Position numbers and translations under genes: made by a program
DNA from: Candidatus Moraniibacteriota bacterium
Lineage (GTDB): Bacteria; Patescibacteriota; Minisyncoccia; Moranbacterales; UBA2206
DNA: 53,006 bases
Direction: 5' to 3'
Assembly (NCBI GenBank): GCA_030679985.1
Contig: JAUXSI010000026.1
Coordinates: 1-53,006 of the forward strand
Part shown: one piece after another, positions 10,502-29,979 of the stretch
Layout: each line of letters begins with the position of its first letter
Numbering within the stretch: position 1 is the first letter of the stretch
The notes under the pieces: generated by a model
What the model was told of the DNA's origin: nothing
The model's database searches: none
The model's input: only the letters and a program-made list of their open reading frames with translations

Positions 10502-11059
10502 TTATGCCCGGCCGACATATTCGCCTCTTTCGGTATTGACGATTATCTTATCGCCTTCATTTACGAAAAGCGGAGCGGACACCTTGAGGCCGGTTTCAAG
10601 GGTGACGACTTTGCCGCCGGTTGAAACGGTATTGCCCTTGATCCCCGGCGGGGCCTCCACGACTTCCAAAACCACCTTGACCGGGAGCTCGATGTTGATC
10701 GGTGTGTCGTTGAAATTCAAAACTACGATTTCCGTCCCCTCGATGAGATAGTCCGTAGCCGAACCGAGAACGGCTTTAGGCAGCGAAAACTGCTCATAGG
10801 ATCCGTTATCCATAAAGGCATAGCTTTCGCCTTCTTGGTAAAGGAATTGGGCTTTGGATTTTCTGATATCGGCTTCTTCGAGCTGATCGGCGCCTTGAAA
10901 AGTCTTTTCCAGGACCGCGCCGGTAATCAAGTTCTTAAGCTTGGTGCGCAGGACGGATCCGGCGCGTCCGGTTTTGGATTGTTCATGGAAAAGGACGGCA
11001 TAGGGAGCTTTTTCATGGACGATATTTTTGCCTGTCTTGATATCGCTTATATTTAACAT
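10502..11059 (-). CDS. efp: translation elongation factor P
   Basis: Full-length EF-P with three domains and C-terminal VNTERGEYVGRA. Start placed at the second ATG (11059), which sits at the same distance from the conserved GATTCGCATCGGCAAT block as the rpsR start. The ORF track extends to 11065. Confidence 0.93.
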   Translation of the reverse strand: MLNISDIKTGKNIVHEKAPYAVLFHEQSKTGRAGSVLRTKLKNLITGAVLEKTFQGADQLEEADIRKSKAQFLYQEGESYAFMDNGSYEQFSLPKAVLGSATDYLIEGTEIVVLNFNDTPINIELPVKVVLEVVEAPPGIKGNTVSTGGKVVTLETGLKVSAPLFVNEGDKIIVNTERGEYVGRA

Positions 11060-11162
11060 AATCATTGCCGATGCGAATCTACGGATTGCAATACGGATTT
11101 ACGAAATTTTCGGAACTGTTTGTTCGTAAATCCGTCGATGTTTCGTAGTTTCGAATCGGTTT
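11060..11162. repeat. structured intergenic repeat, copy A (rpsR-efp spacer; lacks the GC palindrome)
   Basis: TTGCCGATGCGAATCTACGGAT...; stem GGATTTACGAA (11095-11105) / TTCGTAAATCC (11123-11133) with a 17-nt loop ATTTTCGGAACTGTTTG. Confidence 0.85.
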
Positions 11163-11402
11163 TTATTTTACTACGAATGGTACCAGCGCCATAACGCGGG
11201 CTTTTTTGATGGCGGTTGCCAAGGCTCGCTGGTGCTTGGTGCAAGTCCCGTGTCTTTTTGGCGGGTATATCTTGCCCTGTGAGTTGGTGAAACGCTTGAT
11301 CAGATAGACATCCTTGAAATCGATCTTATCCATTTTTATATCGCAAAAATGGCAAACTTTTTTTTCAGCTTTGGTCGGTTCGTTATTGTTGTATATTTTC
11401 AT
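11163..11402 (-). CDS. rpsR: 30S ribosomal protein S18
   Basis: CHFCDIKMDKIDFKDVYLIKRF...GKIYPPKRHGTCTKHQRALATAIKKARVMALVPF is canonical bS18. Confidence 0.96.
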   Translation of the reverse strand: MKIYNNNEPTKAEKKVCHFCDIKMDKIDFKDVYLIKRFTNSQGKIYPPKRHGTCTKHQRALATAIKKARVMALVPFVVK

Positions 11403-11530
11403 AATTATTGCCGATGCGAATCTACGAATTGAAATACGCCTGCCTGCCTGCAGGCAGGAATCTACGAAATTTTCGGAACTGTTTGTTCGTAGATTCGAAA
11501 TATGTCCGTAGTTTCGAACCGGGTTATTGT
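11403..11530. repeat. structured intergenic repeat, copy B (ssb-rpsR spacer)
   Basis: Same 5' block. 16-bp palindrome CCTGCCTGCAGGCAGG (11443-11458). Stem GAATCTACGAA (11458-11468) / TTCGTAGATTC (11486-11496) with a loop identical to copy A. Confidence 0.9.
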
Positions 11531-12016
11531 TTAAAAGGGTACGTCTTCAAGCCTGATTTCATCCTGCTCCTCGTCAAGGTTGATGGTCGGGATTTCTTCC
11601 TCGGCTTGTTGTGGGCGGTCGTTTTGCGGACGTTGTTGCTGGGGAGAGACCGGTTTGTTGAATGAGCCAGGTGCGTTGGATGCTCCGGCGGCGCGTGAGC
11701 CTAATTGCATATTTTCCGCGATTACTTCGGTCACTCTCCGTTCCGATCCGTCCTTGGCGGTGTATTTCCGCGTTTCCAATCTGCCTTCGATGAAAGCTTC
11801 CTGACCCTTGGTCAGGTATTGTCCGGCAATTTCCGCCAACCTGCCCCAAAGGACGATGTTGTGGAATTCGGTTTTGTCTTGCCTTTGCCCGCTCTTGTCT
11901 TTCCAAAAACGGTTGGTGGCGAGGCTTAGCGTCGCGACAGATTGGCCGCTGGTCGTGTTGCGGATTTCCGGGTCGCGGGTCAGGCGGCCGACTAACATCA
12001 CTTTGTTAAGATTCAT
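11531..12016 (-). CDS. ssb: single-stranded DNA-binding protein
   Basis: MNLNKVMLVGRLTRDPEIR... OB fold, Gln/Pro-rich linker and acidic tip LEDVPF. The 30 extra N-terminal codons in the ORF track (to 12106) read through repeat element C. Confidence 0.95.
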   Translation of the reverse strand: MNLNKVMLVGRLTRDPEIRNTTSGQSVATLSLATNRFWKDKSGQRQDKTEFHNIVLWGRLAEIAGQYLTKGQEAFIEGRLETRKYTAKDGSERRVTEVIAENMQLGSRAAGASNAPGSFNKPVSPQQQRPQNDRPQQAEEEIPTINLDEEQDEIRLEDVPF

Positions 12017-12140
12017 TTGTTTTATGCCGATGCGAATCCACGAATTGAAATGCGCCTGTCTGCCGGCAGGCAGGAATCTATGAAATTTCCGAAACGGGCC
12101 ATCCATAGATCCGAAATGCTTCCGTGGTTTCGAAACGGTA
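12017..12140. repeat. structured intergenic repeat, copy C (rpsF-ssb spacer)
   Basis: TGCCGATGCGAATCCACGAATTGAAATGCG. Palindrome CCTGTCTGCCGGCAGGCAGG (12055-12074). Stem ATCTATG (12076-12082) / CATAGAT (12104-12110). Confidence 0.9.
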
Positions 12141-12674
12141 TTAGATGTTTAAAATCTCTTCCAATTTTTTATCGATATCCTCGGCGGTTTTTTCCGCGTG
12201 GACAGGTTTCTTTTCGGTAGTTTTTTCAGTTTTTCCGTCTTTGGCGGCCGGGGTCTCCGTTTGACCTGGGATGGTTTTCAAGTCAGGGGTTTTGGCGGCA
12301 GCGACAACTGGCGTTTTTACCGATTTGGCTTTTCTTTCCGATACTGCGCTGGCTGCGCCGATTCTTTCTTCCTTGGTCTTCAGTTCCGGTAATTCCGAAG
12401 CGCGACTGATGACTGAGCGCAGGATATTGGTGTAGAGGTTGAGTTTGCGCGTGATGGATTGGATGCTGGTCGGATCTTCAAGTTCGAAGCGGCGTGCCAC
12501 ATAGAACCCGTGGGTTTCATGCTTGACCTGGTAGGCCAACTTTCTTTTTTCGACGACTTCTTTTTCGTCAAAAACTCCGCCTTCCGCAGTCACGATTTCT
12601 TGCGCTCCGGCCTTGATCGCTTCTAGCTCAGCTTCCTTGGAGGCCGCGACCAGATAGAACAGTTCATACTTCAT
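12141..12674 (-). CDS. rpsF: 30S ribosomal protein S6 with long C-terminal low-complexity tail
   Basis: MKYELFYLV...HGFYVARRFE core of bS6. Classic rpsF-ssb-rpsR order. About 75 extra Lys/Ala/Thr/Glu-rich residues at the C-terminus. Confidence 0.93.
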   Translation of the reverse strand: MKYELFYLVAASKEAELEAIKAGAQEIVTAEGGVFDEKEVVEKRKLAYQVKHETHGFYVARRFELEDPTSIQSITRKLNLYTNILRSVISRASELPELKTKEERIGAASAVSERKAKSVKTPVVAAAKTPDLKTIPGQTETPAAKDGKTEKTTEKKPVHAEKTAEDIDKKLEEILNI

Positions 12675-13235: not shown

Positions 13236-13994
13236 TCAGCTGGAAATTCCAGCCGGCCCATTGTTTTTTTCAGGCAATAAATCCCAAATCGTTTCAAAAA
13301 ACCCTTTTTGCGTGTCATGGATCTTCTGGCTTTCGATGATGATGGCCATTTCTTCATTATAAGATACGAAGCCGACTTTGTTATAGCCATAGACTACCAT
13401 TTCGATTTGGATGTTGAATTTTTCTGAGGGTACTAACTTGGTCTGGGAAAAATAGGCGCCTAATTCTTCAGCAACGTCGCGAAGGACGGGATTGTTGCGG
13501 AAAAGGATTCTGGCCCAGATCTTTTTTTCTTGGCGTTCTGGCATAAAATAGTCGGTAAAAAAGCCTTCATAATCCCAAAATTTCTCATTGAAAGTTCCCA
13601 ACATTTCTACGCCCGGGTATTTCAAAACGTCATTAAAAACTTCCTTGTAGGCCTCTTTGCCTTCAAAATATCTGATTTTAGGCTTTTTGTCGATCAGATT
13701 GGTGATGGAAAGAAGTTCCGGCATGATTTCTTCCAGTCCGCGTTTTTCTTCTTCTAATAATTCCAGAAGTTTTTTCGGGTTTTCTGCCAAAAATACCGGA
13801 CGTTTTTTGCGCCGTGACTGACTGATGATCCCCCTTTTTTTTAGCAGTTCAATCATTTCATAGACGGTTGAACGCTTAATTAGCGATTTTTTGGTAATTT
13901 CGGCTATAGTCCCTTCGCCTAATTCCAAGATAGTTATGTATACTTGTGCCTCCTTTTTATCGAATCCGTTAGTGATAAGTTTGTCTAAAATCAT
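13236..13994 (-). CDS. TrmB-family HTH transcriptional regulator
   Basis: N-terminal winged helix LITNGFDKKEAQVYITILELGEGTIAEITKKSLIKRSTVYEMIELLKKRGII is typical of the TrmB family. Start chosen at MILDKL (13994); the ORF is open to 14039. Confidence 0.85.
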   Translation of the reverse strand: MILDKLITNGFDKKEAQVYITILELGEGTIAEITKKSLIKRSTVYEMIELLKKRGIISQSRRKKRPVFLAENPKKLLELLEEEKRGLEEIMPELLSITNLIDKKPKIRYFEGKEAYKEVFNDVLKYPGVEMLGTFNEKFWDYEGFFTDYFMPERQEKKIWARILFRNNPVLRDVAEELGAYFSQTKLVPSEKFNIQIEMVVYGYNKVGFVSYNEEMAIIIESQKIHDTQKGFFETIWDLLPEKNNGPAGISS

Positions 13995-14200
13995 ATGTTT
14001 TATATAAATTAACGAATATTTAGTCGTTAATTTAATCATAGCATATATGGCTAAAACTGTCTATAACAAAGCAAATTTAAGATTGTCTCCCTTGCATGTC
14101 TCCCGGGGAATAACATTATTATTGATAAGTTGACAAAATAGTGCTAGTATTGCTTGTTAATAAATTTTATTACATGCGATTAATCAATAATAACTGCTAG

Positions 14201-14249
14201 ATAGACTTAATTTATTTTTTAAGACTATTCGGTAGAAAGCTAAGTCTAT
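14201..14249 (+). promoter_or_regulatory. inverted repeat that would pair with the carbamoyltransferase start codon
   Basis: ATAGACTTA (14201-14209) and TAAGTCTAT (14241-14249); the ATG is 14248-14250. Confidence 0.4.
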
Positions 14250-16044
14250 GAATAATACAAAGAAAGATGTATATACTCTGGGAATAAATTCCGCCTATCA
14301 TGAACCATCCGTTTGTCTGATAAAGAACGGTAAGGTAATCGCAGCGGTAGAAGAAGAGCGGTTCAATCGGATGAAGCATGGGAAACATTGCTTGATAGAC
14401 AATCCGCATGAGCTACCGTACAACGCTTTGGACTATTGTCTAAAACAGGGTGGTATAACTTTAGATGATGTGGATCAAATTGGCTTTACTTTCAATCCAA
14501 TCAACAGACTAACGAAAAATATCGGCCTTGAGGAGGATGTGGATGCGGGTGATTGGGGTAGTGAGAAAGGTGAGCGGCTGTACTATAAATTATCTATGTC
14601 GGTTCCTCAGATATTGGAAAAGAAATATAAAGCGAAAATTGCACACAAGTGGAATTGGTTGCCCCATCATACTTGTCACGCGGCTAGCGCTTATTATGAC
14701 TCGCCTTTCTCCGAGGCGGCCGTTATGACCTTCGATGGAATAGGTGAATTTGCCAGCATTACATTGGGCTATGGCAAAAATAACAACCTGTCTATATTTA
14801 AGGAGGCAGGTGAATATCCGAGCTCGCTAGGATTCCAATGGACTAAGGCTTCCCGCTTCTTGGGTATCTTAGTCGATGGCGCAGGTGAATATGGCGCAGG
14901 TAAGATTATGGCTCTGGCTTCCTACGGTAATCCGGATAAATATTATGAGACTTTCAAAAAATTTTTGAGTTATGATAAGGAAGGAAACTTTGTTGTGGAT
15001 GGTGATGTGATGCAATTCCGAAAAAGTACGCATGAAAATTTCGAGAAAATGTTCGGTTTCAAGGCGCGCAAGGAGGATGGGGAAATAACGCAAGACCATA
15101 TGGATTTCGCGGCAGCTCTACAAAAAATTACCAACGAAATCATGTTGGGTTATGCGCAGCAGGTTTATAAATTGACCAAGCAAGACAATCTTTGTATGGC
15201 AGGGGGTGTCACTCTGAATTGCACCAGCAATACTAACTTGTTGGAAAAAAGCAGATTCAAGGATATCTATATCCAACCAGGTGCCAATGATATGGGAACT
15301 TCTGTCGGCGCGGCTTATTATTGCTACCACGAAATCTTAGGTCAAGAAAGAAGAAATGTTGCAGCTAAAACTCCCTATACCGGCCCGGAATATGGTGAAA
15401 AGGAAATTTTGAAAGCGCTCAAGAATGAAAAGGGCGTCCAGTATGTCAAGGTGACCGGCATCGAGAAGGCGACTGCGAAACTGATTGCCGAAGGTAAGGT
15501 TATTGGATGGGTGCAAGGGCGGGCTGAATTCGGACCGCGAGCCTTAGGCAATAGGAGTCTCTTGGGTGATCCAAGGAAGATCGAAATGTTCAAAAGGATC
15601 AGCTTGGATATAAAAAAAAGAGAATGGTATCGTCCGCTAGCCCCGATTGTCATGGATGAATATGTCGACCAATGGTTCAATCGTCCGAAGCACGGAGCGG
15701 AATCGGATAAATGGATGCTTTTCGCTTATCCGATACGGACGGGAAAGAGAAAATTAATTCCAGCCGTGACGCATCATGATGGGACAGGTAGAGTGCAAGT
15801 AGTTTCGAGGGATACCAATTCAAGATTGCATAAGTTGATAAGCCACTTTAACTCGCTGACTGGAGTACCGGTTTTGATTAATACCTCGTTCAATAGTAAT
15901 GAGCCGATGGTATTGACACCAGAACATGCTATCAACACTTTCTTGAAGTCTGGAAAAGACGGAATTGATGTCCTGGTAATCGGAAGCTATTTGATCACCC
16001 GCAAGGATATTGATGCGAAGAAATTAGCGAAGCATAAATCCTAA
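14248..16044 (+). CDS. NodU/CmcH/TobZ-family carbamoyltransferase
   Basis: N-terminal Kae1-like ASKHA fold (LGINSAYHEPSVCLIKNGKVIAAVEEERFNRMKH). C-terminal carbamoyltransferase domain (GRAEFGPRALGNRSLLGDP ... TSFN). Confidence 0.9.
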   Translation: MNNTKKDVYTLGINSAYHEPSVCLIKNGKVIAAVEEERFNRMKHGKHCLIDNPHELPYNALDYCLKQGGITLDDVDQIGFTFNPINRLTKNIGLEEDVDAGDWGSEKGERLYYKLSMSVPQILEKKYKAKIAHKWNWLPHHTCHAASAYYDSPFSEAAVMTFDGIGEFASITLGYGKNNNLSIFKEAGEYPSSLGFQWTKASRFLGILVDGAGEYGAGKIMALASYGNPDKYYETFKKFLSYDKEGNFVVDGDVMQFRKSTHENFEKMFGFKARKEDGEITQDHMDFAAALQKITNEIMLGYAQQVYKLTKQDNLCMAGGVTLNCTSNTNLLEKSRFKDIYIQPGANDMGTSVGAAYYCYHEILGQERRNVAAKTPYTGPEYGEKEILKALKNEKGVQYVKVTGIEKATAKLIAEGKVIGWVQGRAEFGPRALGNRSLLGDPRKIEMFKRISLDIKKREWYRPLAPIVMDEYVDQWFNRPKHGAESDKWMLFAYPIRTGKRKLIPAVTHHDGTGRVQVVSRDTNSRLHKLISHFNSLTGVPVLINTSFNSNEPMVLTPEHAINTFLKSGKDGIDVLVIGSYLITRKDIDAKKLAKHKS

Positions 16045-16064
16045 TAAATTAAGTGTAAAAAATT

Positions 16065-16238
16065 ATGAATAAGAATATCGTAGATAAAATTGCTGCGGAA
16101 ATAGTCAGTAAAAAAATTTCCGAGCAGGAAGTGGAAGATGCAAAAAAGGAAATTGGTGAATATATTTCCGAATTGCAAAAACAAGCTTCCATCAGTCTGG
16201 ATCTGGAATTGGAAAAATTCATCATTGCCAGGCGGTAA
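16065..16238 (+). CDS. 57-aa acidic helical ORF (below the ORF-track cutoff)
   Basis: Hand translation: MNKNIVDKIAAEIVSKKISEQEVEDAKKEIGEYISELQKQASISLDLELEKFIIARR. Starts 20 nt after the carbamoyltransferase stop and ends 42 nt before the next gene. Confidence 0.45.
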   Translation: MNKNIVDKIAAEIVSKKISEQEVEDAKKEIGEYISELQKQASISLDLELEKFIIARR

Positions 16239-16280
16239 AAAAAGTAATGTTAATTTAATTCATTAAATTTAAAAAAAATT

Positions 16281-17483
16281 ATGGAATTAGACAGGGAAAA
16301 AATCATCCCACACCTTAAGCAGAAAGCCAGATTGGATTGTTATGAGGTACAAGGAAGCGTATATTCAGCGGAGAAATTCGTAGCAAAATATGCGTATTTA
16401 TTGAAGGCACATGAACAAAAAATTATCCAGGAGCAGCTAAGCAGCTTAGGAAAGGATGCGGCGGAATTGTTCAGCCGGCCGATCGCCAATGTCGAAGCGG
16501 CTAGTGTATTGGTAATAAGCAGTGAAAAATCAAGTCTGAAAAAAATCGGCAGCCGGTCAGCATATTTGGAAGAGAAAAAGTTGAAACTTAAGGGTTGCCG
16601 TCCGATGCAGGATGGGTTGTATTTCCCGCACGAGAAATTGGATTTCGGCAATAGGCAAATGACTACCACTAAAATTCCCTTCGGCGTGTTGACGGATGAA
16701 AATGTGATGCGGGAAATCCTGGCTTATTGTTTCTTGCAAAAAAATAGCATCCAGGCGATGCAACAGCCGGCTGCGGTCTTCGAATACGCGGATGGCGAGA
16801 ATATAATCGGATATTGTTTGTTGTCCTATTCACAAACTGAAGCGAGGTTGGAAGCTCAAGAAGAATTCTATGGCATGACCGTGCGGAGCTTGGTCACAGT
16901 GAGCGAGATGGAGAGGCGATTAGGGCTTGATGTTCTTGGTAAACTGGATAATTTTTCCAAAGTCAGTAATGAATGGTATGCCGAGAAGAAAAGTGATCTG
17001 ATGATCAAGATGAATTTCAACGGAGGGTTCCGCGGCGTGCTCAACAGCAATGTCGGAAATGACATCGAATACCAAGATAAATTTTATATCTGTGACTTCG
17101 ATACGTTCGAGGTGATCAATATGCCGGAGAAACCGGATTATGAGTTTATCAGAAGTTTTGTCCTGTGGAGTATCATCGAAATGTTGAAATCATCCCCACT
17201 TGTGTTCGCCTATGTGAATATGGATGGCCTAAATAGAAAAGAAGTTGCGGAGCATATCTGGGAGGTGTACACGAAAAACAGCCTATTGTGGCAGAAATAC
17301 TATCAGAAATTTTTGTCTCAAGCGATGGAGCTTGGTTGGGATGCGAACTTGATTGAAAAAGCCGTACAGGATACGGTGGCATCAGACGTGTTTTATGATA
17401 TGGCTCCGGATAATGTCATCGCTTCGGAAGTGCTCAAAAACACTTATCAACCGGAAATGTCTTTCTACACTAAGCAAGGTTAA
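16281..17483 (+). CDS. hypothetical 400-aa protein (weak protein-kinase-like signature)
   Basis: Long ORF whose stop (TAA 17481-17483) is 1 nt from the next ATG. Only weak cues: LKLKGC, VMREI, GVLNSNVGND, ICDFDTF. Confidence 0.7.
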   Translation: MELDREKIIPHLKQKARLDCYEVQGSVYSAEKFVAKYAYLLKAHEQKIIQEQLSSLGKDAAELFSRPIANVEAASVLVISSEKSSLKKIGSRSAYLEEKKLKLKGCRPMQDGLYFPHEKLDFGNRQMTTTKIPFGVLTDENVMREILAYCFLQKNSIQAMQQPAAVFEYADGENIIGYCLLSYSQTEARLEAQEEFYGMTVRSLVTVSEMERRLGLDVLGKLDNFSKVSNEWYAEKKSDLMIKMNFNGGFRGVLNSNVGNDIEYQDKFYICDFDTFEVINMPEKPDYEFIRSFVLWSIIEMLKSSPLVFAYVNMDGLNRKEVAEHIWEVYTKNSLLWQKYYQKFLSQAMELGWDANLIEKAVQDTVASDVFYDMAPDNVIASEVLKNTYQPEMSFYTKQG

Positions 17484-17484
17484 T

Positions 17485-18567
17485 ATGGTTTTCGAAAAAC
17501 CGACAATTGCGGGAAAAATCCTCCCCAGTATTGAGCGGGCGAAAGATTTCGGATTTAAGGAAAAAATTGATGCGGACGGCATCAGGGAAATCATCACGAT
17601 TGGTAACGAGAGAAGGGGTGGGTGCCCTTTCTCTTGCCCTGGCTGCGGGGTGCATGACGAAGTTTTTCTAGTTTCCGATAGTTCAAATAGGATGTATATG
17701 CAAGAAGCGTTGAATATCTTGAAAATCAAGCTATCGCAACGGCGGGAGCAGTTTAAAGCAAACGGATATCATCCTTGCATATACAATCAAGGCAATACGA
17801 CCAATAAGGAAGAATTATCCAGAGACAACCTGGCCTTTCTCTTGCGGGGGTTGAGTGAATTGGATCCGCTACCGGAATATGTTTCTTTGAATTCAAGAGG
17901 CGCATTCATCGACTCGGAATTGCTGGACGAAATCAACCGTTTGGGTTTGCCTTTCGGAGTCCACTTTATTATCGGAGTGGAAAGTTTGACAGACAAGGGT
18001 AGCGCCATGTATGGCAAGAAAAATATAGCTCAAGAAATAGCCAAGTTATTCTCAGTTTTGCAAGACAGTAATCGAAGACCAGGGCAAAAACAACTTTTCG
18101 GGATTGATGCCGGATTCGTTTTTTTGCCGGAGTTCTATCTGGCAGAAGGCGAAACAAGACAGGATAAGGAAAAAGTTAAGCAAGGTTTTATCTCGGATGT
18201 AGAAGTATTCATCGACCAGTACGTTGGCAAGGGTGTGCCGGCCAGGATCAATCTGCATCCGTATTACAAAATTCCCAGCTTGCCACAGGAAGATTCTTGC
18301 GAGGCATTCACGGAATTCATGACGGGTGTCATGGCATTGATAGTAGAATTGCGCCAAATCAATAAAAAGTCATCTCCGGAAGAAAAAGCCGCTTTGTTCA
18401 TCGGGTTGCAAGATTCAGGCTATGGAACGGATAAATGGAAGGATGTTTTCGCAGTCTGGGGTGATGTGGTGGATAGATTGAATGCCCTGAAGGACTATGA
18501 CAGTGAAGAATGTTTTGAAATCATAACTGAGATAATCCAGATTATGGAAAAAGATCTGGTGAAATAA
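17485..18567 (+). CDS. radical SAM enzyme
   Basis: CPFSCPGC is the canonical CxxxCxxC 4Fe-4S/SAM motif near the N-terminus. YNQGNTT and IIGVESLTDKG fit the radical-SAM half-barrel. Start set at MVFEKP (17485), not the overlapping 17353. Confidence 0.8.
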   Translation: MVFEKPTIAGKILPSIERAKDFGFKEKIDADGIREIITIGNERRGGCPFSCPGCGVHDEVFLVSDSSNRMYMQEALNILKIKLSQRREQFKANGYHPCIYNQGNTTNKEELSRDNLAFLLRGLSELDPLPEYVSLNSRGAFIDSELLDEINRLGLPFGVHFIIGVESLTDKGSAMYGKKNIAQEIAKLFSVLQDSNRRPGQKQLFGIDAGFVFLPEFYLAEGETRQDKEKVKQGFISDVEVFIDQYVGKGVPARINLHPYYKIPSLPQEDSCEAFTEFMTGVMALIVELRQINKKSSPEEKAALFIGLQDSGYGTDKWKDVFAVWGDVVDRLNALKDYDSEECFEIITEIIQIMEKDLVK

Positions 18568-18570
18568 AAA

Positions 18571-18600
18571 CTGCCAGCATTGTCAGCTAGCGGTTTTTTT
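18571..18600. terminator. terminator between the radical SAM gene and ychF
   Basis: CTGCCAGC (18571-18578) pairs with GCTAGCGG (18586-18593), with one mismatch and one wobble, then T7. An A-run lies on the other side. Confidence 0.6.
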
Positions 18601-19798: not shown

Positions 19799-21157
19799 AT
19801 GAAAGAATCAATTTTCAAAGCCTATGATATCCGGGGACTTTATCCGAGCGAGATCGGGGAGTTGGAGGTCTATAAGATCGCCCAAGCTTATTGCAAGTTC
19901 GTGAAGCCCAGTACGGTGGTGGTCGGTTCCGATGTGCGGTTGTCTTCGCCCCTGCTCAAACGGGCCGCTATAAAGGCGGTGACGGACGCGGGCGTCAAAG
20001 TGATCGACGTGGGCGAGATCTCGACGGATATGTTGTATTTTTCCGTGGCTAATTATGGTTATGATGGCGGTTTCTCCTTGACGGCTTCACATAATCCCCG
20101 CGAATACAACGGTATGAAATGCGTACGGGAAGAATCGAAACCGATCTCATCCGATAGCGGCTTATTCGAAATCCGCGATATCGCGATGGGGTTGGAAGTG
20201 GATCCGGAAATTTTGCGGGGTGAAATTGATGAGAATCTCGTGGAAAAAAAGGATATCCTCGATGATTATGTCGCTAAAATCAGGACTTTCGCCGATTTTT
20301 CCAAATTCAGGGATTTCAAGATCGTAGCCAATGCCAATTTCGGATTAGCTGGCCGGGCCTTGGACAAACTTTTGGAGGGTACGGATATTTCGGTTGAAAA
20401 ACTGAATTATGAACCGGATGGCAGTTTCCCCAAGGGGCGGCCGGATCCGCTGATTCCGGAAAACCGGGGAGAGACTTCGAATTTGGTGCGCGCGTTCCGG
20501 GCTGATTTCGGAGTGGCTTGGGATGCCGATGCGGACCGCTGCTTTTTCTTTACGGAAAAAGGCGAATTCATCGAGGGTTATTTCGTGACGGCGCTTTTGG
20601 CCAAGATATTTTTACAAAGGCGCAAGGACGAGAAGATAATCCATGATACGCGCCTGACTTGGGCGGTTGAGGATATCGTGGCTAGGAATGGAGGCGTCGA
20701 TGTCCCATCCAAAGCCGGCCATTCCTTCATTAAGGAGCGGATGCGCAAGGAGAATGCCGTGTTCGGCGGTGAAATGAGCGCCCATTATTATTTCCGCGAT
20801 TATTTTTTCTGCGACAATGGGATGATTCCGCTGGTAATGATGATGGAATTTTTGTCCACGCAGAAAAAAACCTTGTCGGAAATCATGCACGAGATGTTTT
20901 GGCGGAAATATTTCGTCAGCGGCGAAATCAATACGTATGTCAATGACGTGCAGGCGGTCGTCGCCAAGGCCAAAGAAATTTATATGCCCGGCGCGGTGAA
21001 AGTCGATGAGACAGACGGCATTTCGATCGATCATGCGGACTGGCGTTTCAACTTCCGCGGATCCAATACCGAACCGCTCATCCGTCTGAATGTCGAAGCC
21101 AAGTCGCAGGAATTGATGGAGCAAAAGACGAAGGAGTTGCTGGAATTGGCCAAATAA
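19799..21157 (+). CDS. phosphomannomutase/phosphoglucomutase family
   Basis: TASHNPREYNGMK phosphoserine loop, GVAWDADADR metal loop, GGEMSAHYYF sugar loop. Confidence 0.93.
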   Translation: MKESIFKAYDIRGLYPSEIGELEVYKIAQAYCKFVKPSTVVVGSDVRLSSPLLKRAAIKAVTDAGVKVIDVGEISTDMLYFSVANYGYDGGFSLTASHNPREYNGMKCVREESKPISSDSGLFEIRDIAMGLEVDPEILRGEIDENLVEKKDILDDYVAKIRTFADFSKFRDFKIVANANFGLAGRALDKLLEGTDISVEKLNYEPDGSFPKGRPDPLIPENRGETSNLVRAFRADFGVAWDADADRCFFFTEKGEFIEGYFVTALLAKIFLQRRKDEKIIHDTRLTWAVEDIVARNGGVDVPSKAGHSFIKERMRKENAVFGGEMSAHYYFRDYFFCDNGMIPLVMMMEFLSTQKKTLSEIMHEMFWRKYFVSGEINTYVNDVQAVVAKAKEIYMPGAVKVDETDGISIDHADWRFNFRGSNTEPLIRLNVEAKSQELMEQKTKELLELAK

Positions 21158-22300: not shown

Positions 22301-23362
22301 ATGAAAACAAATAAAAAAATCATTACGACTTTTGCTTGGATGTTTTTTCTGGTCTTGCCGGCCAGTACGAATTATCAATTGAAGGATTACGGCTTCGGGA
22401 CCGGCGGGACGGACAAGTCTTCTTCGAGTAATTATTCCCTGGAGGCGATTACGGGCGAGTTGGGCGGCAGCCAGGCCGCAAGCGCAGGTTACAAGGTCGG
22501 TCCGGGAATGATTTTTACGGGACAAGCCAATGTACCGGCGGCGCCGACTTTCGATAACCCCGGCAATTATTATAATAAATTGCGGATCATCCTTAATCCC
22601 TCCAATAACGCCAGCGATACCAAATTCGCCATCGCTATCAGTACGGATGATTTCATGACGACCGGATATGTGCAAAATGACAGTACGGTCGGGGCGGTTT
22701 TAGGGTTGGAAGATTATCGGACTTATGCCGGCTGGGGAGGCGCGGGTGGAACTTATATAATCGGTTTGGTAGCCGATACGGCCTACAAAGTAAAGGCCAA
22801 AGCGATGCATGGCAGCTTTTCGGAGACGGATTATGGACCAAGCGCGACTGCCGCTACCGATTCCCAAGCGCTTTCCTTTGATCTGGATGTTTCCGCGACT
22901 GATTCGGAAACTAATGCTCCGTATGCGATCGATCTGGGGAGCGTGAATTACGGCGTCGTGATCGACAGTTCGGACAAGGGTTGGGTCGATTTTGCGACTA
23001 ATGGCGAATTGGGCGGAAACGTGACAGTCAGGGGGTTGAATGCCGGACTTTTAAGTCCGACAGCGGCTTATCTGGTCAGTTCTTTGTCGGGAGATCTTGA
23101 TTCGGCGACGGAAGGCTTCGGCCTGCAAGGATCTTCGGTTGCGCAGGATTCCGGCGGACCGTTCATTATGGATGCCTTATACGACCAGGCCGGAAATATT
23201 ATCGGGATAGCGGATGCGACTGACAGGGAAATTTTTTCGTCAGCCAGTCCGGTGGCCGGTGGCCGCGGCGCATTCCTGTTGAAAGTCAAGACATCCGCGG
23301 ATACTCCTTCCGGAGGTGACTATGGCGAAACCTTGACACTGACGGCTACGGTGAATTTCTAA
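22301..23362 (+). CDS. secreted surface protein with FN3-like segment
   Basis: Signal-like N-terminus (FAWMFFLVLPAST). Repeated NYxL...GG motif. PAAPTF...YKVKAKAMHGSFSETDYGPS looks FN3-like. Terminal strand GDYGETLTLTATVNF. Confidence 0.75.
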   Translation: MKTNKKIITTFAWMFFLVLPASTNYQLKDYGFGTGGTDKSSSSNYSLEAITGELGGSQAASAGYKVGPGMIFTGQANVPAAPTFDNPGNYYNKLRIILNPSNNASDTKFAIAISTDDFMTTGYVQNDSTVGAVLGLEDYRTYAGWGGAGGTYIIGLVADTAYKVKAKAMHGSFSETDYGPSATAATDSQALSFDLDVSATDSETNAPYAIDLGSVNYGVVIDSSDKGWVDFATNGELGGNVTVRGLNAGLLSPTAAYLVSSLSGDLDSATEGFGLQGSSVAQDSGGPFIMDALYDQAGNIIGIADATDREIFSSASPVAGGRGAFLLKVKTSADTPSGGDYGETLTLTATVNF

Positions 23363-23391
23363 TCTTTCCTAAACCCCGGCTGTAGGAAAAT

Positions 23392-24351
23392 ATGCGAATG
23401 GTTATCAAAAAAATAAAAACATATTCATTCTGGGCGTCCGTTTGCTTGCTGTTTTTTGCAAGCCAGCCGGTTTTGGCGGCGGAGAAAAACCCGGGGTTTA
23501 CGCTTTCGCCTTTTTCACAAGAAATAATTATTGAGCCTGGACGGCAAGTGTCCGGTTTTTCCGTTTCGATAGAAAATACGACGGATGCGGAGGCGAGTTT
23601 CCATATTTCGGCGGTTGATTTTTCAATGCGGGATGATTCCGGGAGCGTGACCCTTTTGGAGCCCGATAACCAACCGAGAAAATATGGCTTGGCATCCTGG
23701 ATGGATTTTGATTCGGAGAGGCTGGTGCTTGGACCGGGAGAAAAAAAGAATGTGGATGTTGCGCTAAAAAATGATAGCTCTTTGGCTGTCGGCGGACATT
23801 ACGGCGCGATAGTTTTTAAGATGGAGGGCGCACCGGGATCCGCACCGGTGGCTTTCCAATTGGCCTCGTTGGTTTTCGCGCGGAAAACGGGCGGGGAAGA
23901 ACCGGGAATGGAATTGCAAGGACAGGAATTGCAGACGCGATTTTTGAAAAATCCGGCAGGAGTAAAATTATTTTTTCAAAACACCGGCAATGTCCATCTG
24001 GTTCCGCGGGGAATCGTGCGGGTAATTGATTTTTTCGGCCGGGAAGTGTCGGCGGGAATAATCAATCCGGAGTCGGCGATCATTTTGCCGGAAACTGCCA
24101 GATCTTTTCCGGTCGCGTTCCAAAAATTATCTCCGATGTTTTTTCCAGGACGCTATACCCTTTCGGTGGAATACCGTTTCGACGGGCAGGATGGTTTCGT
24201 AACGCGGAAAACCGGTTTCAATTTAATTCCGATAGGTTCTGCGATTGTTATCGCCAGCGTGATGGCGGTTATTATTGCCGTAAGCCCCATTTTATGGCGT
24301 AAAATCAAAAACAAGAACAAAAAGGCTCAAATAAAAGAGATTCAATCTTGA
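23392..24351 (+). CDS. membrane-anchored two-domain surface protein (CscA / DUF916+DUF3324-like layout)
   Basis: Signal peptide ending VLAAEK; GFTLSPFSQEIIIEPG; GGHYGAIVF. A second beta-rich half follows, then a C-terminal TM helix plus a basic KIKNKNKK tail. Confidence 0.7.
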   Translation: MRMVIKKIKTYSFWASVCLLFFASQPVLAAEKNPGFTLSPFSQEIIIEPGRQVSGFSVSIENTTDAEASFHISAVDFSMRDDSGSVTLLEPDNQPRKYGLASWMDFDSERLVLGPGEKKNVDVALKNDSSLAVGGHYGAIVFKMEGAPGSAPVAFQLASLVFARKTGGEEPGMELQGQELQTRFLKNPAGVKLFFQNTGNVHLVPRGIVRVIDFFGREVSAGIINPESAIILPETARSFPVAFQKLSPMFFPGRYTLSVEYRFDGQDGFVTRKTGFNLIPIGSAIVIASVMAVIIAVSPILWRKIKNKNKKAQIKEIQS

Positions 24352-24450: not shown

Positions 24451-27400
24451 ATGGGTCCAGGAAACCTAAAAATAAAAATACTTTTAACCGCTATGCTGAT
24501 TATGCTAGGGGGATTTTTTGTTTTTCAAAAAAGCGCTTCGGCGGCGGCCGGAATCAACAAGACGATAAATTTCCAAGGCAAGGTCGTCAATACGGACGGA
24601 ACTAACGTGGCTGACGCGAATTATGATTTCGTTTTCCGGAGTTATGACCAGCAAGCCCCCGGCGGAACCCTTATCTGGACGGAAAGCAAGTCCTTGGCGG
24701 TGGATGATGGTATTTTTCAAACTAATTTGGGCGATGCATCCGCTTTGCCAGGTTCGGTTGATTTCAATACGGATAATATTTATTTAGGCATCGAATTCAA
24801 TAGTAATGGCGAGATGGCTCCGCGCGTGCAGTTCACAGCCGCGCCGTATGCTTTCAACGCGGACAAGTTGGATGGGCAGGATTGGGAAATTCCGGGGGCG
24901 ATCGGATCGGTGACGCCGAACTCCGGAACGTTTACGGCATTGGGGGTTTTGGAATCCGGAATAGCACCTGTCTTCAAGACTATTTTCCAGGGCGCGGACC
25001 AAGCTTCGGACATCACTTACACGCTTCCGGCAATTTCAGCCGATGGGTTATTAAAAAACGATAGCGGAACACTTTCTTGGGATACGGCGAATTACCTGGT
25101 CAACCCGATGTCGACACTAGGGGACATCATATATGGCGGAATATCCGGCGCGCCGACCCGCTTGGCTGGTTCGGCCGGCTTTTTGACTTCGACTGGCGCG
25201 GCCGCACCGGTTTGGACGGCAGCTACGACTGATTATTTCAACCAATACGCTCTTTTGGAGGGCCGTGCAGGCGGACAAGTATGGATAGGTGGGACGGCGG
25301 CCAATGATATGCTGACTATCCAAGGTAATAGCGCTTCAAGCGGCAATGTCGGAACCAACACGGCAATGTTGTTCAAGGTAGGTGATTCCGGCGCAACTAC
25401 GGCTTTCTCTATCTTGCAGGATGGGACTTTAAATTTTCAAAACAGCGCAACCCAAAATATCCGCATTGAAAATGCCGATGCCAGCGTACTGGCTCCGTCT
25501 TGTGATGGAACATCATTAGGGCGGATGTACTATGACACTTCCGCCGGTTCGGCGTTCGTGTGTATCGAGAGCGCGCCTGGTGTCTATGGCTGGTTCGATT
25601 ATACGACGACCAGCGTCCAATCGAATAAAGTGGTGACGGTAGGAACAGGCGGCGATTTCACTTCCATTTCCGCCGGCGCGGGATATCTGAACGCTTTGGG
25701 CGGCGGAATAATATTGCTGACTCCGGAAACGCACAATGTCACCAGTTCCGTGGATTTGTCCAATATCAACCTGATCGGCGCGAATACCGGCGATACCCGC
25801 ATAAATATCACCGGAAGCGGAGTGTTGCGCGTCAAAGAAACGCAATTCAAATCATTGACGATTTATGTCGATGCGGCAATCGCGTCAGCGGCTGGAATCG
25901 ATGCCAAATATGATGCCGCGACCACAACCTCGGTCATTTTCGAATGGGTGGATTTCATCACTAACGGAACGAAGGTGTTGTTGGACAGCTCCGAAGCCAC
26001 AAGTCCGGTTATCAGGACAAGGTTTATCAGCGTTTCCGCCACTTCAGGCACCCAAAAAATATTATTGCCGCAAGCCACTTCCAATATCGACGCGAGTTCG
26101 ACCAACTTTGTCGAATCGCAAGGCGGCAGCGGTGCGTTGGATTTGGAGGACTGGGATGTTAAAATCGCCGGCTCATCCAATGTGAAAACTTCCGGGACCA
26201 TTACGACCATCCCGGCCAGCACCATATATGTTTATCCGGGTATGAACATCCAAGCCGCGATCAACAGCGTTTCAAGCGGAGGAGTGATCACGCTTTTGCC
26301 GGGAGTGCACAATATCACCAGTACGCTTTTAATCGACCGCAGTGACATCCAGATCCAGGGATATGGCGACTCTTCAATCGTACGTGCCGCGGGCTTTGTC
26401 GGCGGCGACCAAGTGGCCGCGTTCCACATCGGATCTCTGGACGGCGCTGTTCCCCAAGACGGAGTGGTGTTGAAGGATTTCCGTTTGGAAGTTTCCGGCA
26501 CCGGCGCCAGCGACATTCACGGTATCCGGGTAGCCGGCGGCGAAGACAATCAGATTTTGAACATATCTGTCGTCAAAACAGCCGGCGCCAGCGGTACGGG
26601 AGCCGGAGCCAGAATCGGTATTTTTATGCTTGACGGGACTGCTGAAAAATTGGCCCGTCCGGTAATCAAAGGCTGCCGCGTTTTGGGCGACTCCGCGGTG
26701 ACGGCGTATTTTACCGACGGAATTCATGTGACTGGCGGCGCCGGATATGGCGTCGGGTCGGGAGTGTGGACCAACGGCCAGGGCGTTGACGGGGCGTTGG
26801 TGGATGGAAACTATGTCGATTATGTGCGGGAAACGGTGGCGGTTTTCGTCGGGACCAACAACAGTTCACTTTTCAATAACCGGTTCACGCGTATGGGCGC
26901 GGGCGGCGGCGGAGCTTTCGGTGTGTTTATGGGTAATGCGTCCAATGTCAATATGACAGCCAATGTGGTCAGTACTTCCCTTTCGACGGCTTCTTCCGGA
27001 ATCGTCATAGACGGTTTGGACTCGGGTAGTTTGAAACAAATGACCGATTCGGCATTCACTTCCAATACGGTCGACGGCTCGGCCAATGGCGGAGTGGGAT
27101 TCGCGACCGGCGTGGTAATCGGAGCGGCGGCCAATACCGGATTTCATCGCAATCTATTCACGAATAACATAATTAACGGCGCTTCCGATCTGGTGACGGT
27201 GGCGATCAGGATCACCGGAAATGCGGATGACAATAATTTTTCCAATAATTCCATAAATGGAATCAATAATGCTTGGGATACCGGAATCAATATCGTTTCA
27301 AACACCGCTGATCGCAATTTCATCGGCAAGAACGCGTTTATCAATGTGACGGCAACAGTAGCCGATGCCGGTATCGCGACCCAATTGAATGTGACCCAGC

Positions 27401-29979
27401 ATGATGCCGCAATCGATCCGACCGCAAGCGATGACAGCGCGGATGGGTATGTAGTCGGGACGGTTTGGGTCAATACGGCTACGCAAAGCGCGTATATCGC
27501 GACCGGCGTGTCAATCGGAGCGGCGGTTTGGGAACAAATTGACGGGGCGGCCAGCGGCTCATCGACATTGCAAAGCTCCTATGACGCGGCTGGCGGCAAT
27601 ACGATTACGACGACCAGCGGAAAAAACATCGCTTTTACGCTGGGCGAGACGGCAACGCCGACTTCATTCACGGTTGAAAACCAAGATACGGCCGGAGTTT
27701 CGGCGGAACGGATTTCCAATTCGATCGCATCGGGCACTTTGACCAACGGCTTGCTTTTCGAACAGACCGGCGCGGGATCGGTTACCAACGCCATCAATAT
27801 TTTGGAAACAGCCGGCGCGATTTCTACCGGAATCAACATCGGCAACAATATCGGCACCGGAATTTCCATCGGCACCGGTTTGACTACCGGCATCTCGGTG
27901 GGCTCCGGCGGAATCATCATCAACGGCGGCGCCTTGGCTATCGATAACGCGGCCGGCATCACCAGCAACCAATCGGCGATGGCGATCAATGTGAACGGAG
28001 CCGCGACCGGCAACGTGCAGATCGGCGATGGCGGCGCAGCTTCAGCGACTCCGGATATGCTGGTTTTGGATGCCGGGTCCGTGGAGCCGGCCGGTACGGA
28101 TGGTGCGATGTATTATTCGACCGCTTTGGGTAAATTCAGATGTTACGAAAACAGCTCTTGGAAAGATTGCATCTCTACGGCCGCTTCTTCTTTGCCGGAC
28201 ACGGCGGTTTTCACCGATGCGACCCCGGCGGCGTGGACGGATTCCAATACTACGGAAGTTTTCAACGACGCGACCAAACCGAACATCGCGACTGATTCGG
28301 CCAGCTCCACGGTCCTGGTACACGTCCAGGTTTATGGGCAGACCTCCAACACCAACGCTGACGCGATTTTGGCGGCGCGGATCGTGCGGACGACCGACGG
28401 AAGCAATCCTTCCTGCGCTTCGGCGACCAATGTCGGCGTGCCGATGATCGGTAATTTCACGACTTCCACCTCACAACCTTGGCAGATAGTCGGAACGTTC
28501 ATCGACAGTCCGGCCACGGCCGGCACGATCAGATACACCGTATGTACCAGTTCCGATTCGGCCGGTACGGCGACGGATACTCCGAACCAGGTCATTGTGG
28601 AGTTGGCCGAACTGGGCGCCGACTTGGCAGAAAATTATTATACGCAGGATGATTCCATCGAGCCGGGCGACGTCGTGGCGATTAACGGGGATATATCGGC
28701 GGGCATCAAAAAATCGGAGAAAATTTATGACCAGAATGTGATCGGCGTGATTTCGACCAATCCGGGCATCACATTGGATGACGCGATCGGAATCGGACAG
28801 GGTCGTCCGGTAGCTGTGGCGCTGGCCGGCCGTATCCCGGTCAAGGTTTCCAGTGAAAATGGGCGGGTAAAAGCCGGAGATTACTTGACCGCTTCTTCCG
28901 TGCCGGGCGTGGCGATGAAAGCAACTAAAACCGGTTTGGTAATCGGGCAAGCCTTGCAGGATTTCGGTTATGCCGACGATACGGTCGGATTGGTGCTGAC
29001 TTTCGTGAAAAACGCCTATTTTAATGGAGCGCAAATCGTCGATAGTGAAAACGAAATATTGTCCGGAACGGATCTTTTGCAGAAACTTTTGCTGGACAAG
29101 GCGCAAATCGACACCGCGGCGCCGGTCAGTGAGATTGTGAGCGATAGGATCGTGGCCGGATTGGAAATGGTGACGCCGCAACTGGTGACGGATAGCATTA
29201 TCGCGAAAACCATCCGGGCTGAGCATATCGAAGGGCTGGAAATCATAGAAACTGGAATCCAAAACGCGCAGGAGGCCGCTACGGACAATGCCGATGAAAT
29301 GGAGAGTTTGGGGCAGAAAATTACCCGCATCCAAAAGACCATCCAGTCTTGGAATGATAAATCCGGCAACTTTATAATAAGCAGCTTGGTCGAATTCCGT
29401 GGACGAGCAACGTTCAAATCCATTGCGGAATTTATGGATAAGGTTATTTTCCGCAAGGACGTCGAATTTGCCGGGCAGGCGATGTTCAACCAAGACGCGG
29501 CCGGCTATGCGGTAATCAATGAAGGCCAAGATAAAGTTGAAGTGGTTTTTGAAAAAGAATATGCGGCAGTCCCGGTAGTGACTGCGAGCATTTCCTTGCA
29601 ACAGATCGAAGATGACGAGGTGCGCAAAGCGGCGGAAGAATTGTTATTGTTGAATAAAGCCAATTATATAATCACCGATGTCACCGAAAAAGGATTTGAA
29701 ATCCGCATAGACCAAAAGATGGTTTCGACGATTCCATTTTCTTGGCAGGCGGTGGCGGTGAAAGATGTGAAAACTTTCAGCAAAAACAGCAAAGATAAAA
29801 ATAGGAAAACCGATCAAGTCGATGTTGTGGCAGAAGAAGAGGAAGAAGCTGTGAGCGTCGAAGTCGCCGATCAGAGCCAGGCAGGAGCGGGGGATGGCGC
29901 GTCCGACAACGGGGATGCGGAGATGGAGGAAAGCGATCCGTCGATAAGCGATGGAGAGATCGCTGTGGCGATGCCATAA
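24451..29979 (+). CDS. giant (1842 aa) surface protein with right-handed beta-helix repeats and tail-fibre-like termini
   Basis: N-terminal anchor or signal. INFQGKVVNTDGTNV...YDFVFRSY...IWTE module. Many NxxxxN/G beta-helix rungs (NNRFTRMG, FTSNTVDGS, FTNNIINGA, FSNNSINGI). DLAENYY..EPGDVV..GRIPVKVS C-terminal module, coiled coil and acidic tail. Confidence 0.85.
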   Translation: MGPGNLKIKILLTAMLIMLGGFFVFQKSASAAAGINKTINFQGKVVNTDGTNVADANYDFVFRSYDQQAPGGTLIWTESKSLAVDDGIFQTNLGDASALPGSVDFNTDNIYLGIEFNSNGEMAPRVQFTAAPYAFNADKLDGQDWEIPGAIGSVTPNSGTFTALGVLESGIAPVFKTIFQGADQASDITYTLPAISADGLLKNDSGTLSWDTANYLVNPMSTLGDIIYGGISGAPTRLAGSAGFLTSTGAAAPVWTAATTDYFNQYALLEGRAGGQVWIGGTAANDMLTIQGNSASSGNVGTNTAMLFKVGDSGATTAFSILQDGTLNFQNSATQNIRIENADASVLAPSCDGTSLGRMYYDTSAGSAFVCIESAPGVYGWFDYTTTSVQSNKVVTVGTGGDFTSISAGAGYLNALGGGIILLTPETHNVTSSVDLSNINLIGANTGDTRINITGSGVLRVKETQFKSLTIYVDAAIASAAGIDAKYDAATTTSVIFEWVDFITNGTKVLLDSSEATSPVIRTRFISVSATSGTQKILLPQATSNIDASSTNFVESQGGSGALDLEDWDVKIAGSSNVKTSGTITTIPASTIYVYPGMNIQAAINSVSSGGVITLLPGVHNITSTLLIDRSDIQIQGYGDSSIVRAAGFVGGDQVAAFHIGSLDGAVPQDGVVLKDFRLEVSGTGASDIHGIRVAGGEDNQILNISVVKTAGASGTGAGARIGIFMLDGTAEKLARPVIKGCRVLGDSAVTAYFTDGIHVTGGAGYGVGSGVWTNGQGVDGALVDGNYVDYVRETVAVFVGTNNSSLFNNRFTRMGAGGGGAFGVFMGNASNVNMTANVVSTSLSTASSGIVIDGLDSGSLKQMTDSAFTSNTVDGSANGGVGFATGVVIGAAANTGFHRNLFTNNIINGASDLVTVAIRITGNADDNNFSNNSINGINNAWDTGINIVSNTADRNFIGKNAFINVTATVADAGIATQLNVTQHDAAIDPTASDDSADGYVVGTVWVNTATQSAYIATGVSIGAAVWEQIDGAASGSSTLQSSYDAAGGNTITTTSGKNIAFTLGETATPTSFTVENQDTAGVSAERISNSIASGTLTNGLLFEQTGAGSVTNAINILETAGAISTGINIGNNIGTGISIGTGLTTGISVGSGGIIINGGALAIDNAAGITSNQSAMAINVNGAATGNVQIGDGGAASATPDMLVLDAGSVEPAGTDGAMYYSTALGKFRCYENSSWKDCISTAASSLPDTAVFTDATPAAWTDSNTTEVFNDATKPNIATDSASSTVLVHVQVYGQTSNTNADAILAARIVRTTDGSNPSCASATNVGVPMIGNFTTSTSQPWQIVGTFIDSPATAGTIRYTVCTSSDSAGTATDTPNQVIVELAELGADLAENYYTQDDSIEPGDVVAINGDISAGIKKSEKIYDQNVIGVISTNPGITLDDAIGIGQGRPVAVALAGRIPVKVSSENGRVKAGDYLTASSVPGVAMKATKTGLVIGQALQDFGYADDTVGLVLTFVKNAYFNGAQIVDSENEILSGTDLLQKLLLDKAQIDTAAPVSEIVSDRIVAGLEMVTPQLVTDSIIAKTIRAEHIEGLEIIETGIQNAQEAATDNADEMESLGQKITRIQKTIQSWNDKSGNFIISSLVEFRGRATFKSIAEFMDKVIFRKDVEFAGQAMFNQDAAGYAVINEGQDKVEVVFEKEYAAVPVVTASISLQQIEDDEVRKAAEELLLLNKANYIITDVTEKGFEIRIDQKMVSTIPFSWQAVAVKDVKTFSKNSKDKNRKTDQVDVVAEEEEEAVSVEVADQSQAGAGDGASDNGDAEMEESDPSISDGEIAVAMP

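Follow-up and report, generated by a model that had tools for sequence, protein, structure and literature searches.

A Cassette of a Carbamoyltransferase, a Kinase-Like Protein, and an Arginine-Ended Arm in a Moraniibacteriota Genome

Introduction

What does a carbamoyltransferase do beside a very short gene, a protein that resembles nothing in the sequence libraries, and a radical S-adenosylmethionine (radical-SAM) enzyme? The question is raised by four closely packed plus-strand genes in a contig of a Candidatus Moraniibacteriota bacterium (GenBank assembly GCA_030679985.1, contig JAUXSI010000026.1), the analysed stretch of which, 53,006 nucleotides long, is called the window. An original prediction, made from these letters alone, proposed that the genes look like a self-contained system which could either make a carbamoylated sugar or nucleoside, or act on the short gene product in the manner of a ribosomally synthesised and post-translationally modified peptide (RiPP), and did not recognise the combination as a described pathway. 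Comparison with related loci gave a conserved module of three parts: the carbamoyltransferase (CT), the kinase-like orphan protein (K), and an arm that ends in arginine. The third enzyme of the module varies, and its genes are tightly coupled as an operon. We give even chances to the reading that the cassette is a system for processing a tethered arginine, either RiPP-like or carrier-like. The four genes are:

14248–16044, plus strand: CT, a carbamoyltransferase of the NodU/CmcH/TobZ type, with both Pfam domains
16065–16238, plus strand: 57-codon open reading frame (ORF) for a 57-residue peptide, 20 nt after CT, ending ...LEKFIIARR
16281–17483, plus strand: K, an orphan protein of 400 residues, 42 nt after the 57-codon ORF, with its TAA at 17481–17483
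17485–18567, plus strand: RS, a radical-SAM enzyme of 360 residues with a CxxxCxxC motif, its ATG 1 nt past the TAA of K

The spacing of these genes, the cysteine motif, the terminator, and the divergent TrmB-type regulator gene were all confirmed at the positions predicted.

The Cassette as a Conserved Unit

In all, 57 loci were compared: 27 distinct ones tabulated in full, and 30 added by a later scan of metagenomes. CT adjoins K in 26 of the 27 tabulated loci, the exception being L011, in which K is frameshifted; in L032 the two are joined in a single fusion protein of 947 residues. The tabulated loci come from the candidate phyla radiation (CPR, including Kerfeldbacteria), Bacteroidales, Acidobacteriota, Planctomycetota, Nitrospirota, Myxococcota, SAR324, and Krumholzibacteriia among the bacteria, and from Nanoarchaeota, Methanosarcinales, and a locus with an archaeal signal recognition particle (SRP) RNA among the archaea, giving a spread over CPR, DPANN, and at least eight other phyla. 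Identity of CT across domains is high (55–61% to the copies of Methanosarcinales and Nanoarchaeota), which, together with the patchy distribution, points to horizontal spread of the cassette. The four plus-strand genes are a co-conserved, self-contained unit, as had been proposed. The claim of novelty also held, as the cassette is undescribed in PADLOC, PHROGs, Rfam, and NCBIfam 2026, and in the literature covered by full-text search. No support was found in the literature for the cassette as a maker of the guanylurea unit of 5-azacytidine.

By its sequence, CT is a carbamoyltransferase of the NodU/CmcH/TobZ type with both domains and the catalytic motifs intact. Both domains are matched over their entire length, Carbam_trans_N (Kae1-like, with the HxxxH metal motif) at E 1e-55 and 189.8 bits (cutoff 24) and Carbam_trans_C (YrdC-like) at E 6e-63 and 211.8 bits (cutoff 27), and the alignment with GdmN from the PDB (E 8e-86) keeps PHHxxHA, GRxEFGPRALGNRS, and NTSFN. 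What the window copy lacks is the arginine tail that most CT homologues in the cassette bear.

The Arginine-Ended Arm

Immediately 5' of K, every one of the 27 tabulated loci encodes a polypeptide with arginine as its last residue; the background frequency of a C-terminal arginine is 13.5%. This flexible arm is a free peptide in nine of the loci, and in the other 18 it extends CT at the C-terminus. The fused extensions are found where the small ORF is absent and CT lies directly upstream of K; they are 23–90 residues long and end in arginine (...FEHLR, ...YFEKLR, ...FRSR, ...FMSR). In the CPR and DPANN loci, every small ORF that directly precedes K ends ...F[IV]xxRR, and free ORFs homologous to the 57-residue peptide, with the same position and ending, were found at L001, L006, L007, L010, L011, L031, and L033–L042. 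At least five unrelated types of tail are represented (FIxxRR, FEHLR, YFEKLR, FRSR, and FMSR), and a single type can take both forms. RR-type arms stand alone in the window, L007, and L031 and are joined to CT in L028 and L016; FRSR-type arms are separate peptides in L018 and L044 (gene order peptide-K-RS-CT) and part of CT in L012 and others. Where arm and CT are split, the peptide gene tracks the 5' end of K and not the 3' end of CT (for example in L001, L006, L018, and L032), and its stop codon is often only 1–4 nt from the start codon of K. The CT-K fusion of L032 is preceded by a separate ORF of 46 residues ending ...PSTR. Among the 30 further metagenome loci, the arm was present wherever upstream DNA was available, except in L056.

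These comparisons indicate that the 57-codon ORF is real, and its interpretation as a chance ORF was rejected because it is conserved and exists in a CT-fused form. It has the hallmarks of a RiPP precursor, namely a small, conserved ORF beside modifying enzymes, with an invariant terminal residue. The RiPP-like half of the original prediction thus gains strong support from the conservation of the small ORF, its invariant arginine end, and its fusion to CT in most lineages. The occurrence of fused and split arms is a parallel to the borosins (omphalotin RiPPs), where, depending on lineage, the target peptide forms the C-terminus of the modifying enzyme (OphMA-type fusions) or is encoded by a separate small gene ('split' borosins). 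Unlike the borosins, whose enzyme is an N-methyltransferase, the cassette has a carbamoyltransferase and a kinase-like protein, and its conserved site is a single terminal arginine. As a separate observation, a conserved gene of about 550 codons separates CT from the peptide gene in L035 (2101–3756) and L042 (4193–5839), both of which have a free peptide of the RR type.

The Kinase-Like Protein

K has no sequence match in Pfam, NCBIfam, or the PDB, even by profile search, and sequence and profile searches of PHROGs, PADLOC, NCBIfam, Pfam, and the PDB assigned neither K nor RS to a significant family. It is also rare, with 44 clusters among 5.8 billion proteins and about 106 representatives among 1.84 billion. 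Its AlphaFold2 model (pLDDT 92, pTM 0.92) retrieved with Foldseek the AcsD member of the NRPS-independent siderophore (NIS) synthetases first (E 1.8e-3, TMq 0.38, probability 0.98), followed by protein kinases and Bud32, nearly all matches being kinases at TM scores of 0.2–0.4. Among them were the Kae1-Bud32 fusion 2vwb (probability 0.96) and the Bud32 structure 4ww5 (TMt 0.41). The Pfam domain IucA_IucC was not found in K, the Foldseek match to AcsD being its sole link to the NIS synthetases. The description of K as kinase-like and otherwise unmatched is supported by the model, at these weak scores, and by the empty sequence searches.

Residues K104, E145, N255, N257, N260, D261, D272, and D274 are invariant in the family alignment. 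The motifs LKLKGC, LNSNVGND, and CDFDTF, noted earlier as a degenerate kinase-like pattern, are present and coincide with invariant columns. The putative kinase core runs from a G90-R92-S93 loop through K104 on strand 3 and E145 on the next helix to an N255-x-N257-x-x-N260-D261 loop and D272-F-D274. Relative to secondary structure, K104, E145, and D272 stand in the order expected of a kinase, the motifs having been mapped by order and spacing at TM scores of 0.2–0.4. The catalytic-loop aspartate (HRD or HxD...N) is absent: the loop reads LNSNxGND, with the invariant N255 at the position of the aspartate. K is probably kinase-like in fold, with an active site that uses ATP.

The match to AcsD, an enzyme that adenylates carboxylates, also speaks for a reading in which the arm is a carrier like LysW. 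K would ligate an imported amine, ornithine- or agmatine-like, to the alpha-carboxylate of the terminal arginine, CT and the third enzyme would act on the tethered compound, and hydrolysis would release the product so that the arm could be reused. A carboxylate substrate would suit the asparagine at the catalytic-base position of K, and the arginine is strictly C-terminal. Importers dependent on a substrate-binding protein (SBP) occur at six loci (see below), the amidohydrolases of L016 and L023 could perform the release, and a carboxyl group, once activated, could be the substrate of the LuxC-like reductases of L007, L028, and L037. LysW and scaffold-peptide (pearlin) pathways do perform amino acid chemistry on a small carrier peptide, at its C-terminal residue, the tether protecting the alpha-amine. 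They differ in that LysW has a C-terminal glutamate and an ATP-grasp ligase, and pearlins add a residue from aminoacyl-tRNA, whereas the arginine here is gene-encoded. The match to AcsD is weak (TM 0.38), neither an ATP-grasp ligase nor a LysW-like zinc ribbon is present, and this reading would explain neither why arginine is needed as an anchor nor why arginase-like and RaSEA-type enzymes recur; we regard it as unlikely.

The Radical-SAM Protein and the Third Slot

RS bears GGCPFSCPGCGV (CPFSCPGC), in which C47, C51, and C54 are invariant across 36 homologues, and so shows the CxxxCxxC motif of a radical-SAM enzyme within a partial TIM barrel. Its model (pLDDT 91.6) matched Elp3 best in Foldseek (E 5e-7), then HydG and DesII, with probability 1.0. 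Hidden Markov models gave sub-cutoff hints only, to Radical_SAM (Pfam, 17 against a cutoff of 29.5) and to TIGR01210/RaSEA (15.8 against 212 bits). The family comprises 36 clusters, all at E < 1e-78 with nothing weaker. RS belongs to a discrete family with, as judged from the model, an Elp3/RaSEA-like fold, outside the Elp3 and RaSEA housekeeping families; it does not qualify as RaSEA, and ArcS was seen in no locus. The original prediction had allowed that RS might turn out to belong to a well-known housekeeping family. Although nearest in fold to the tRNA-modifying Elp3 and RaSEA, it is a member of neither, and a role in housekeeping tRNA modification was rejected given its mere 36 clusters, all within the cassette, and its patchy distribution.

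RS fills the third slot in 14 of the 27 tabulated loci. True TIGR01210/RaSEA proteins take its place in two (L007 and L028, scoring 252 and 240 bits against the cutoff of 212), arginase-like proteins in four, and Amidohydro_3 proteins in two. The arginase-like proteins (L004, L010, L022, and L029) are orthologous and have true arginases as their best PDB matches; they keep DxHxD and DxDxxDP, while GGDHS is changed to HGDDS. The amidohydrolases (L016 and L023) are likewise orthologues. In the RaSEA variant (L007 9175–14105; L028 8211–13025; metagenome loci L037–L040), K is followed by a true radical-SAM enzyme of the RaSEA family, a radical-SAM-SPASM protein, a protein of about 390 residues, and a LuxC-like acyl reductase; its hosts are marked by an archaeal SRP RNA at L007 and by NucS at L028. 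The slot enzymes are usually alternatives, and strict mutual exclusivity was dropped as an idea on account of L045, which has RS and an arginase-like gene together.

Given the tRNA-modifying enzymes nearest to RS in fold, a machine of the KEOPS kind has to be weighed, in which K, as an ATPase of the Bud32 type, would partner the Kae1-like domain of CT, the arginine tail would be a docking element or active-site plug, and the substrate would be a free small molecule or nucleic acid. TobZ-type carbamoyltransferases do join Kae1-like and YrdC-like domains, K matches 2vwb and 4ww5 as given above, and in KEOPS too a transferase domain of the Kae1 type has a small, atypical kinase-fold protein as its partner and is occasionally fused to it, the CT-K fusion of L032 being the counterpart of the Kae1-Bud32 fusion MJ1130. 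Several points speak against it. K is unrelated to Bud32 in sequence, no other KEOPS subunits are present, and the cassette is accessory, not universal, with a patchy phylum distribution that does not suit a core tRNA modification. Docking of CT to K could not be the task of a free peptide, unattached to CT; moreover, the gene for the peptide stays with K and not with CT, and the arginase-like and amidohydrolase partners would be left unexplained. We consider this reading quite improbable.

Recurrent Neighbours

ABC (ATP-binding cassette) importers of the SBP-dependent NMT1 type accompany the cassette at six loci, and an ornithine carbamoyltransferase gene lies beside it in L001. With FRSR-type cassettes, a family of proteins called U (330–460 residues, 27–38% identity) was found at four loci, often adjoining an NMT1-type importer:

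L012, 3737–5065: U protein, no Pfam or NCBIfam match
L017, 3657–4784: U protein, no Pfam or NCBIfam match
L018, 13780–14763: U protein, no Pfam or NCBIfam match
L020, 3356–4732: U protein, no Pfam or NCBIfam match

Transporters of the NitT/TauT type and enzymes of the arginase family are classic members of guanidine regulons. With importers at six loci and arginase-like genes at four, the cassette might then serve to assimilate or detoxify an imported guanidino, ureido, or cyanate-type nitrogen compound, with the arginine tail a mere pseudo-substrate regulator. Rfam searches of the window and of 20 loci gave neither a guanidine riboswitch nor another element of any kind, most loci (the window included) have no transporter, and CT would spend ATP and carbamoyl phosphate, an unlikely outlay for catabolism; the probability of this reading is accordingly low.

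Still less probable is the other half of the original prediction, that a sugar or nucleoside is carbamoylated, with K a small-molecule kinase and the small ORF irrelevant. It finds some encouragement in the characterised enzymes TobZ, NovN, and GdmN, which O-carbamoylate small molecules, in TrmB regulators, which are often sugar-responsive, and in a phosphomannomutase-like gene at 19799–21157 of the window. Separated from the cassette by the terminator and a convergent gene, that gene is not conserved elsewhere. Across the 57 loci, no glycosyltransferase, nucleotide-sugar enzyme, or nucleoside enzyme is conserved with the cassette, and the recurrent accessories are instead arginase-like, amidohydrolase, ornithine carbamoyltransferase, and NMT1-type importer genes. 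The small ORF, or its tail form, is the best-conserved accessory feature of all. This half of the prediction was not supported.

An anti-phage role was also rejected: CT, K, and RS gave nothing below E 0.01 against the PADLOC defence models, and just two loci have TIR and Bro-N genes nearby. A protein of 413–473 residues recurs near the cassette in L016 (3711–4952, Nitrospirae) and L004 (10477–11898, Bacteroidales), with 34% identity between the two copies, and the copy in L004 adjoins a TIR-domain protein.

A Proposed Tethered-Arginine Mechanism

In the preferred reading, the processing of a tethered arginine, the arm would present its encoded C-terminal arginine to K as substrate or carrier, the alpha-carboxylate and guanidinium being free while the alpha-amine is held in the peptide. 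K, probably a kinase-fold protein that keeps the residues for ATP and Mg, would use ATP to activate either the carboxylate or a ureido or guanidino oxygen or nitrogen. The asparagine standing where the catalytic-base aspartate normally sits suggests that the target group probably needs no deprotonation. CT would form carbamoyl-AMP from carbamoyl phosphate and ATP, and the carbamoyl group would then be moved to the arm. The third enzyme would cut a C–N bond at or next to the guanidino or ureido carbon, releasing or remodelling the head group, a step suggested by the common denominator of the slot occupants. Arginases hydrolyse guanidines, and ureides and amidines are opened by many amidohydrolases. 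From preQ0-Lys, an N-alkyl amidine, RaSEA takes away the lysine skeleton to give archaeosine (PMC11298593).

Precedents can be found for the separate steps. HypF, a member of the YrdC/Kae1 superfamily that serves the cyanide ligand of [NiFe]-hydrogenases, carbamoylates the C-terminal residue of its partner HypE via carbamoyl-AMP, and an ATP-dependent step follows; C-terminal carbamoylation before an ATP-dependent step is what makes the two systems parallel. Unlike K and the arm, HypE has a PurM fold and a C-terminal cysteine, and HypF-HypE involves neither a radical-SAM enzyme nor an arginase. StdF, a NodU-like carbamoyltransferase, N-carbamoylates a lysine of a ribosomal peptide, at a side-chain nitrogen close to the C-terminus (PMC13174530). 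It differs from the cassette in its target residue, in its fusion to an S8 peptidase, and in its company of YcaO and MNIO proteins, with no K and no terminal arginine (PMC13174530). The ArcS-RaSEA system supplies a radical-SAM enzyme of the same fold clade as RS, with true TIGR01210 members in the slot at L007 and L028. RaSEA strips an amino acid carbon skeleton from an N-alkyl amidine, and the arginine side chain is an N-alkyl guanidine. Unlike that system, the cassette has no ArcS or tRNA-guanine transglycosylase (TGT) partner and no link to tRNA, and the RS of the window remains far below the RaSEA cutoff.

Several points weigh against this reading. A tail fused to an enzyme of 600 residues implies a single turnover, unless the arm is regenerated or is a carrier. 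The importers at six loci are a hint that a small molecule is imported as substrate, the kinase-like label of K rests on weak structural scores (TM 0.2–0.4), five loci have no third enzyme at all, and at L045 two slot enzymes occur together. No arginine tail is seen in L056, a short and probably frameshifted contig. No RiPP recognition element (RRE), leader protease, or exporter was matched by Pfam or NCBIfam in the cassette proteins, and a MacB-type transporter adjoins the cassette in L008 only. Finally, the chemistry of the cassette is entirely inferred.

A bolder version, rather unlikely in our estimate, would make the cassette a protein-tethered machine for guanidino groups. The encoded arginine would be a sacrificial or recyclable donor, or the site of a round of arginine, ornithine, and citrulline resembling the urea cycle. 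Such a round might consist of cleavage by the arginase-like or radical-SAM enzyme, re-carbamoylation by CT, and ATP-dependent re-amination or dehydration by K. It would yield a small nitrogen-rich molecule (urea, guanidine, guanylurea, or cyanamide) or transfer the guanidino group, and would represent a new biochemical logic operated by a new family of kinase-fold enzymes.

As read here, the cassette would be a form of peptide- or carrier-tethered biosynthesis, and there is a real chance that its chemistry is new in kind. If the reading is correct, K would be a new enzyme family, at present without annotation, and carbamoyltransferases of the NodU/TobZ type would gain a new use on the C-terminus of a protein or peptide. 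The cassette would also be the second modification system, after the borosins, with both enzyme-fused and split-peptide forms, and the RaSEA/Elp3-like radical-SAM clade would acquire a role outside tRNA. Its occurrence in the reduced genomes of CPR and DPANN, which are poor in dedicated biosynthetic modules, suggests a function relevant to their lifestyle.

Control Region and Surroundings

Three further features frame the operon in the window:

13236–14039, minus strand: winged-helix regulator of the TrmB family (Pfam TrmB PF01978), divergent from the cassette
14040–14247, no strand assigned: AT-rich divergent control region, with a promoter-like site at 14122–14150 (pattern scans)
18566–18600, plus strand: intrinsic terminator (hairpin and U-run) at the end of the operon, -12.5 kcal/mol, z = -3.1

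The regulator, whose N-terminal winged-helix DNA-binding domain matches PF01978 (E 2e-12, 47.1 bits against a cutoff of 25.6), would control the operon, and a homologue occupies the same divergent position in nine of the 27 tabulated loci. Homologues of 247–249 residues suggest that its true start is probably Met16, at 13994. The spacer to CT measures 208 nt (29% GC) from the longest ORF and 253 nt (27% GC) from Met16, in line with the AT-rich divergent region described earlier. A perfect 11-nt inverted repeat (14116–14126 and 14183–14193; TTATTATTGAT and ATCAATAATAA) brackets the best plus-strand promoter-like site of the spacer and is a candidate operator. The A-run flanking its hairpin suggests that the terminator is probably bidirectional, serving the convergent ychF gene as well as the cassette.

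The cassette is slightly richer in AT than its surroundings (42.6% GC against 47.5% for the window) and is flanked by housekeeping genes (rpoC, ftsK, recA, efp, rpsR-ssb-rpsF, ychF, trpS, RNase J, and uvrA), which indicates that the window is chromosomal and bacterial. Over its full 53 kb (1–53006), no tRNA gene was detected and nothing matched Rfam at gathering score, and several long ORFs have no Pfam match (for example 24451–29979, of 1842 residues, and 22301–24351). An element of 115–135 nt is present in three copies, 66–92% identical (11050–11165, 11393–11528, and 12009–12144), which fill the successive spacers of the minus-strand row efp / rpsR / ssb / rpsF. RNAalifold predicted a long nested hairpin for it, with four pairs kept through two-sided changes, and Rfam gave no match; it may be a repeat resembling repetitive extragenic palindromes (REP) or miniature inverted-repeat transposable elements (MITE), or a structured RNA. 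Towards the far end of the window lie two long paralogous genes for ABC ATPases (45568–48453 and 49921–52773), UvrA-like by their repeated motifs alone, with an ORF of 434 residues between them.

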